From NCBI RefSeq assembly GCF_046105845.1, contig NZ_CP151004.1: a DNA stretch of 64,000 bases; one strand, given 5' to 3'. Below the pieces are notes generated by a model. It did no database searches. It saw nothing but the letters and a program-made list of their open reading frames with translations, and was not told the DNA's origin. This document shows positions 15,381 to 15,519 of the stretch, piece by piece; positions within the stretch are counted from its first letter, which is position 1; every line of letters starts with the position of its first letter. The position numbers were made by a program, and so were the translations under genes. The stretch comes from Escherichia coli (GTDB lineage: Bacteria > Pseudomonadota > Gammaproteobacteria > Enterobacterales > Enterobacteriaceae).

Positions 15381-15385
15381 CGTAA

Positions 15386-15453
15386 AGCAGGCATCTGATG
15401 TGTCAATTTCTGTAAATGACGTTAACAAAGTCACGCGGAAAGTCAGATGCCTG
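15386..15453. repeat. Perfect 12-bp inverted repeat with ~43-nt spacer downstream of rlpA
   Basis: GCAGGCATCTGA (15386-15397) and TCAGATGCCTGC (15442-15453). Confidence 0.6.
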
Positions 15454-15519
15454 CCGGTAGTGCATTTGCTATAGTAGGGCACTTTTTTTAATTCCATCAC
15501 GGATGTCGTAGTTCAGACC

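Follow-up and report, generated by a model that had tools for sequence, protein, structure and literature searches.

A conserved hairpin in the rlpA-dacA spacer of Escherichia coli, its probable role at the 3' end of the rlpA transcript and its overlap with the dacA promoter

A long inverted repeat lies directly after the rlpA stop codon in Escherichia coli, in the short spacer that separates rlpA from dacA, and is followed by a second, weaker hairpin and a run of T. Does this element end the upstream message, yield an RNA of its own, or serve as a binding site for a protein acting on dacA? The question was addressed in a stretch of 64,000 nucleotides of an E. coli genome, called the window below. 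Our preferred answer is that a conserved hairpin probably sets the 3' end that the rlpA (mrdAB-rlpA) transcript has at steady state, its right arm being also part of the dacA promoter.

The locus and its inverted repeat

The locus has the order mrdA-mrdB-rlpA-dacA, with all genes on the + strand of the window:

11265-13166, + strand: mrdA
13169-14281, + strand: mrdB
14292-15380, + strand: rlpA, an open reading frame named after the annotation of E. coli genomes
15378-15380, + strand: TAG stop codon of rlpA
15520-16731, + strand: dacA, with its ATG at 15520

The rlpA-dacA spacer has 139 nt. A 221-nt query over it matched 5424 of 5426 complete E. coli genomes, at a median of one place per genome and rarely at two, the maximum. 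The matches are flanked by annotated rlpA and dacA, the names that had been proposed from the sequence. In K-12 MG1655, dacA occupies 662752-663963(-) and rlpA 664102-665190(-). These gene positions and a comparison of the spacers were used to convert K-12 coordinates to those of the window. The sole difference between the two spacers is in the T-run, which has seven T in the window and in O157:H7 and six in K-12 and in strain 2014C-3599. The E. coli match of lowest identity, strain B95.deltaA (NZ_CP085842.1), has an intact hairpin and reads TGATAACAA instead of TAGCGTAAA at the rlpA TAG and the next bases (aligned to 15378-15386). We take this strain to be one recoded to remove amber stop codons, which would account for the change. 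Kim et al. (2012) assign to rlpA a start site with 88 reads at 664555(-) in their coordinates; it falls inside mrdB, ~142 nt before the rlpA gene begins, so that rlpA has an internal promoter of its own besides any operon transcript.

The two arms of the repeat, GCAGGCATCTGA (15387-15398) and TCAGATGCCTGC (15443-15454), have 12 nt each and are 100% complementary, the left arm beginning 6 nt past the TAG. The perfect 12-bp inverted repeat of the original prediction is present, although its arms are 44 nt apart and not 43 as had been given. It exceeds chance: in first-order Markov simulations of the window, a perfect 12-nt inverted repeat whose loop is <=60 nt long occurs 0.26 times per 64 kb. 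The structure formed by the transcribed repeat has the following parts:

15387-15454, + strand: hairpin 1, a 68-nt RNA stem-loop in the rlpA 3' UTR, from folding, covariation and the covariance model R1
15387-15398 paired with 15443-15454: outer stem of hairpin 1, 13 bp with the additional pair U15399.G15442
15407-15413 paired with 15435-15441: inner helix, 7 bp, UUUCUGU/GCGGAAA
15417-15420 paired with 15430-15433: apical helix, 4 bp, UGAC/GUCA, with the loop GUUAACAAA

The apical helix is the smaller palindrome that had been seen within the loop, TGAC and GTCA around GTTAACAAA; it is real but small. The 85-nt RNA from 15381 to 15465 folds as a single rod of -32.4 kcal/mol, against -17.7 +/- 2.75 kcal/mol for shuffled sequences (z = -5.33), and none of 200 shuffles folded as stably.

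The arm sequence is unique to this site within the window, where model R1 likewise matches only here. A REP/BIME/ERIC-like repeat family was considered and rejected, because the element is single-copy in the window and, as noted, typically so in E. coli genomes. Only two other perfect inverted repeats of >=12 nt occur in the window. One (20264-20293) is a textbook bidirectional intrinsic terminator, AAAAAACCCGC-TTTTTGAA-GCGGGTTTTTT, and the other (59781-59817) is an A+T-rich hairpin, ATAAACCCATAAT...ATTATGGGTTTAT. When both strands were searched against Rfam at a permissive threshold, the best overlapping hit was a plant miRNA model, which scored 16.4 bits where the gathering threshold is 65 (E = 3.5). 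Small ORFs within the spacer were also rejected; in one of them, which has its ATG at 15416 and 14 codons, the start codon is not conserved in the alignment described next.

Conservation and covariation of the hairpin

A scan with DacA gave 80 loci in Enterobacterales. The rlpA-dacA spacers of Enterobacteriaceae are mostly 135-143 nt long, and 49 of them, which align well, make up alignment A1. Folded genome by genome, all 49 form a long hairpin closed by GGCAUC../..GAUGCC, with energies from -16 to -39 kcal/mol. Standard pairs fill 84% of the cells of the outer helix, against 29-37% when the 3' partners are slid. Changes on both sides are found in 7 of the 12 outer pairs; in three of these pairs the types are UA 21/CG 20, AU 15/UA 8 and UA 39/CG 4. 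The covariation score of the outer helix is 0.274, compared with 0.163 for column shuffles (0 of 500 reach 0.274) and at most 0.091 for slid partners, with the reservation that the sequences of A1 are related, so that the shuffle statistics overstate independence and significance. Conservation of hairpin 1 was judged by explicit pair counting and per-genome folding; RNAalifold on the full-spacer alignment did not recover its helix. The inner helices are paired in 49-78% across genera, and in some genera the register of pairing shifts and the hairpin is still kept. Compensatory changes across Enterobacteriaceae had been named beforehand as a check of the stem, and they are there; the long stem is a conserved structured RNA element in the rlpA 3' UTR, as had been suspected.

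The changes also point to one strand. One-sided substitutions mostly leave G.U pairs on the rlpA strand, and the core helix contains 29 G.U cells against 7 A.C. In 37 of the 49 spacers the plus-strand fold is more stable than that of the opposite strand (Wilcoxon p = 0.0025). Covariation together with this G.U pattern is expected of an RNA helix of the rlpA strand and not of a DNA palindrome that binds a protein.

Model R1 was built from 46 spacers. Held-out Enterobacteriaceae matched it at 42-60 bits, and weak matches (E = 0.002-0.04) were found at the syntenic position in Erwinia and Mixta, Erwinia retaining a GGCAUCC/GGAUGCC stem. Outside Enterobacteriaceae, different hairpins follow rlpA in the equivalent spacer. 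Several of these, found in Rahnella, Hafnia psychrotolerans, Brenneria and Rosenbergiella, are canonical terminators with a U-tract.

RNA 3' ends at the hairpin

Published Term-seq data of Adams et al. (2021, PMC7815308), of which the parts of the tables covering this locus are used throughout, place RNA 3' ends on both sides of the hairpin. These ends and the elements that follow the stem are:

15464/15465, + strand: mapped 3' ends of rlpA-strand RNA, ...GAUGCCUGCCGGUAGUGCA(U)-3', 10-11 nt past the stem
15381, - strand: weaker antisense RNA 3' end, ...GAUGCCUGCUUUACG-3', 6 nt past the same hairpin and abutting the rlpA stop codon (K-12 664101(+))
15459-15483: second hairpin, -8.1 kcal/mol, z = -1.85
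15483-15489, + strand: T-run of seven T, +3..+9 of the dacA mRNA

Supplementary file 1 of that work gives the rlpA-strand ends, in the class 'orphan', as K-12 664018(-) on the LB OD 0.4 sheet (average read count 91306) and 664017(-) on another sheet (41794). The sequence column, checked with aspV, holds 50 nt upstream, the 3' end and 10 nt downstream. A discrete RNA 3' end, another sign that had been proposed for checking, is present just past the stem. The 3' end of the rlpA transcript is already in a public table, unremarked. In the sheets used here it is called in only two of three growth conditions, and in the part of the table covered the lowest counts on the minus strand are only ~4-fold smaller. 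The same part lists no other 3' ends between K-12 663950 and 664049, and none at the T-run. The antisense end 664101(+) occurs three times in the file, with counts of 1166 and 1788 in two passages, and is followed by UUUACG. No antisense start site was found in the start-site data of Kim et al. (2012), and the Cappable-seq and TERMITe supplements had no entry at this locus. A candidate divergent -10 for the antisense RNA is the - strand TACTAT that overlaps the -10 of dacA.

How would the rlpA-strand end arise? The inverted repeat would be transcribed as the end of the mrdAB-rlpA message and fold into a very stable 68-nt stem-loop just past the stop codon. The RNA could then be released or cut further downstream, by Rho-dependent termination, by weak termination at the T-run or by RNase E at the A/U-rich GCA|UUUGC. 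From there 3'-to-5' exonucleases would trim it back and, we infer, stall ~10 nt from the base of the stem, leaving ...GCCUGCCGGUAGUGCA(U)-3'. All three routes would yield the identical final product. The Rho route is unsupported by the Rho-region table of PMC7815308, since neither rlpA nor dacA is named in the part of it used here and no entry there falls within 663950-664049. Read-through downstream of the rlpA end would, for its part, be masked by the strong dacA promoter 16 nt downstream.

The features of the end agree with a class described by Dar & Sorek (2018, PMC6061677), in which transcripts end directly 3' of stable stem-loops without U-tracts after trimming by PNPase and RNase II. 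The agreement lies in the 10-11-nt overhang, in the missing U-tract, the rlpA strand continuing with CGGUAGUGCA past the stem, and in a mild excess of C over G downstream, with a GC skew of -0.2 to -0.3 over 15480-15620. As in that class, a stable stem-loop without a U-tract has a precise steady-state 3' end just downstream. By this likeness, hairpin 1 would be a locus-specific, conserved 3' stem-loop of a known class that blocks exonucleases, and not a canonical intrinsic terminator. This accords with the earlier remark that the stem is longer than in typical terminators and may be a structured RNA instead: the fold is conserved, the U-tract is absent and a pattern-based terminator scan of the spacer was empty.

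The main rival, which we consider unlikely, holds that the element terminates transcription directly. Hairpin 1 would be a non-canonical, partly bidirectional intrinsic terminator acting on both the rlpA and the antisense polymerase, or termination would occur at the second hairpin and T-run and be followed by trimming. Several observations favor this. The 13-bp outer stem and the stability of the whole hairpin provide the G+C-rich stem-loop of an intrinsic terminator, RNA 3' ends lie just past the stem on both strands, related families have canonical intrinsic terminators at the same place, the second hairpin with its U7 resembles a weak terminator in E. coli, and the part of the Rho-region table used lists no Rho-dependent region here. 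However, the rlpA strand has no U-tract after the stem, and its RNA ends 10-11 nt away, at A15464 and U15465, instead of 7-9 nt away within a U-run. The U-rich antisense flank is not kept in other genera. The second hairpin is weak and variable among genera as well: its median energy across genera is -4.3 kcal/mol, its folds differ, and its outer pairs occur in 8-16 of the 49. The part of the Term-seq table used here reports no 3' end at the T-run either.

The dacA promoter, its overlap with the hairpin and known systems

The remaining part of the spacer and the 3' half of hairpin 1 belong to dacA:

15447-15452, + strand: predicted dacA -35 hexamer ATGCCT, inside the right arm and 17 bp from the -10
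15467-15475, + strand: dacA extended -10, TGcTATAGT, 5 nt upstream of the mapped start site
15481, + strand: dacA transcription start site, A (Kim et al. 2012, PMC3415461)
15481-15519, + strand: dacA 5' UTR, with the conserved block CACGGATGTCGT at 15497-15508
15411-15446, + strand: sequence-conserved 3' interior of the hairpin, TGTAAA...cATTAACAAAgTCAyGCGsAAAGTC, -70..-35 from the dacA start, from A1

The start site is listed in Supplementary file 2 of PMC3415461 as 663224(-) in its coordinates; 336 reads support it, the 5' UTR has 38 nt and the sequence before the start ends in ...TATAGTAGGGCA. ATGCCT is the -35 of PdacA-3, named in PMC9338883 with reference to a computational prediction by Huerta & Collado-Vides. 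The same work names the -10 TATAGT and reports that an 88-bp fragment starting GCCGGTAGTGC drives GFP, so the promoter is active without upstream DNA. Among the 49 spacers of A1, GATGCC is nearly invariant, and so is TTTGCTATAGT, which most of the more distant Enterobacterales also have; within the extended -10, T99-T104 never vary and C98 is conserved to at least 90%. The spacing of TGn and -10, the mapped start and the promoter activity identify 15447-15481 as a sigma-70 extended -10 promoter. A consensus promoter scan of the spacer missed it because the -35 is too weak for the scan rule. In many genera, including Enterobacter, Kosakonia and Lelliottia, columns 104-122 of A1 (~15458-15475) read GTATAGC(A/T)TTTGCTATAGT. 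This creates a TATAGC/GCTATA inverted repeat overlapping the -10, which is absent in E. coli.

The short hairpin and run of seven T that had been seen after the stem are not a terminator-like tail. They coincide with the extended -10, the start site A15481 and nucleotides +3..+9 of the dacA mRNA. A conserved terminator made of the second hairpin and the T-run was rejected on these grounds, the start site being mapped within it. Its weakness, varying fold and rare outer pairs mark the second hairpin as promoter sequence instead. The T-run itself is conserved across Enterobacteriaceae, with 7 T in 31 spacers, 6 in 10 and 5 in 4, and with 4-8 in genera other than Escherichia. At pyrBI, codBA and upp, a U-run so placed causes reiterative transcription that is sensitive to UTP. 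A possible link between UTP supply and PBP5 through the dacA T-run would be worth examining. In the 5' UTR the block CACGGATGTCGT is nearly invariant across Enterobacterales, and dacA lacks a good Shine-Dalgarno sequence 5-10 nt from its ATG; insertion of AGGAGG doubled DD-carboxypeptidase activity (PMC9338883). An upstream AUG at 15502 was rejected, since it is lost in Citrobacter (GGACG).

The two halves of hairpin 1 are conserved differently. The majority fraction in A1 is 0.83-0.90 in the 3' interior and 0.69-0.71 in the left arm and 5' interior; for the arms alone it is 0.87 on the right and 0.69 on the left. The conserved 3' interior includes a TGT-N11-ACA and the motifs TTAACAAAgTCA and AAAGTC. 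Of the six fixed letters of TGT-N11-ACA (TGTAAATGACGTTAACA, 15411-15427, -70..-54), five never vary among the 49 spacers and one is at least 90% conserved; the motif resembles a dyad operator. To our knowledge, the spacing of the TGT-N11-ACA/TTAACAAAGTCA block fits no CRP, TyrR, CpxR, PhoP, ArcA, LexA or LacI-family consensus. Judged from its conservation and position, the 3' interior may be a promoter-upstream element, UP-like or bound by an activator. Most simply, promoter-level constraints on the DNA would hold the 3' half, and the 5' half would evolve to stay complementary. One arm would be conserved and the other only complementary because the stretch has to pair as RNA for rlpA and to act as promoter for dacA, and the 5' half appears to track the promoter side. 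In this respect the hairpin neatly illustrates two constraints acting on a single piece of DNA. The overlap also concerns strain engineers who place cassettes between rlpA and dacA, as was done in PMC9338883.

A further step would be to regard the element as dual-coded for regulation: the end hairpin of the elongasome operon mrdAB-rlpA, built from the promoter of the carboxypeptidase gene dacA, would yield an 85-nt fragment with the loop CAUUAACAAA, or an antisense RNA, coupling two cell-wall functions. We regard this as improbable; Rfam and the papers searched gave no sign of a trans-acting or Hfq/ProQ-bound fragment at the locus. Very improbable in our judgment is the more general proposal of a regulatory RNA that acts in trans or in cis with CAUUAACAAA as its seed, formed either by the stable 3' fragment of ~85 nt that extends from the stop codon as far as 15465 or by the antisense RNA. 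Its discrete 3' end, the conserved sequence of the 3' interior and loop, and the existence of an antisense 3' end would fit. However, the conserved sequence is equally explained by promoter-upstream DNA, and the U-tail of an Hfq-dependent 3'-UTR-derived sRNA is absent. No 5' end delimits a discrete small RNA, the Term-seq count, as given above, is modest within the part of the table covered, Rfam gave no match, and a literature search found no sRNA or named element at rlpA-dacA.

Equally improbable is that the arms act as DNA, bound by a dimeric or looping regulator that controls the dacA promoter, and that the RNA fold is incidental. The original prediction had raised a protein-binding site affecting this promoter, and the part that stands is the bearing on dacA: the right arm carries the predicted -35, and TGT-N11-ACA and other blocks are conserved at -35..-70. 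BolA is also reported to up-regulate dacA. The arm pair itself does not behave like a protein-binding palindrome, because the arms covary instead of keeping their sequence, the left one being the variable one, and because the G.U bias (29 to 7 over A.C) is meaningful only for RNA of the rlpA strand. In addition, the shifts of the pairing register leave the hairpin in place, half-sites 56 bp apart would be atypical, and the RNA end maps to the structure. The least probable proposal is that the long interrupted duplex is an RNase III site separating rlpA from dacA in a read-through transcript. The ~24 bp of stacked helices predicted in E. coli favor it; against it, a 7-nt bulge and an internal loop of 3 nt interrupt these helices, pairing of the inner ones across genera is just 49-78%, and the mapped end lies outside the duplex.

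The preferred reading therefore remains that of a hairpin which sets the rlpA 3' end and shares its right arm with the dacA promoter. With a 3'-end hairpin, a promoter and a 5' UTR, the spacer is wholly accounted for, and the map of a well-studied cell-wall locus is complete. The hairpin is ordinary operon punctuation and opens no new biological question.

Among known systems, hairpin 1 most resembles the 3'-terminal protective stem-loops of Dar & Sorek (2018, NAR, PMC6061677) and the REP-type exonuclease barriers cited there: it is stable, lies in a 3' UTR, lacks a U-tract and has a precise end immediately downstream, with C exceeding G beyond. Unlike those stem-loops, which are terminator-sized, it is far longer, with 68 nt in three helices, its dependence on Rho or exonucleases is putative, and its 3' half doubles as dacA promoter DNA; unlike REP elements, it is single-copy. 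With canonical Rho-independent terminators, such as AAAAAACCCGCTTTTTGAAGCGGGTTTTTT at 20264-20293 in the same window, it shares a G+C-containing stem, here right after a stop codon, and RNA ends on both strands, and the orthologous spacers of Rahnella, Hafnia and Brenneria carry true terminators of this type. It differs from them in the missing sense-strand U-tract, in a 3' end 10-11 nt off and in an interior of 44 nt, compared with a loop of 3-8 nt. The dacA promoter is like other sigma-70 extended -10 promoters (TGnTATAAT), with TGcTATAGT, a weak -35 and a 17-bp spacer, and is unusual only in the conserved T-run at +3..+9.
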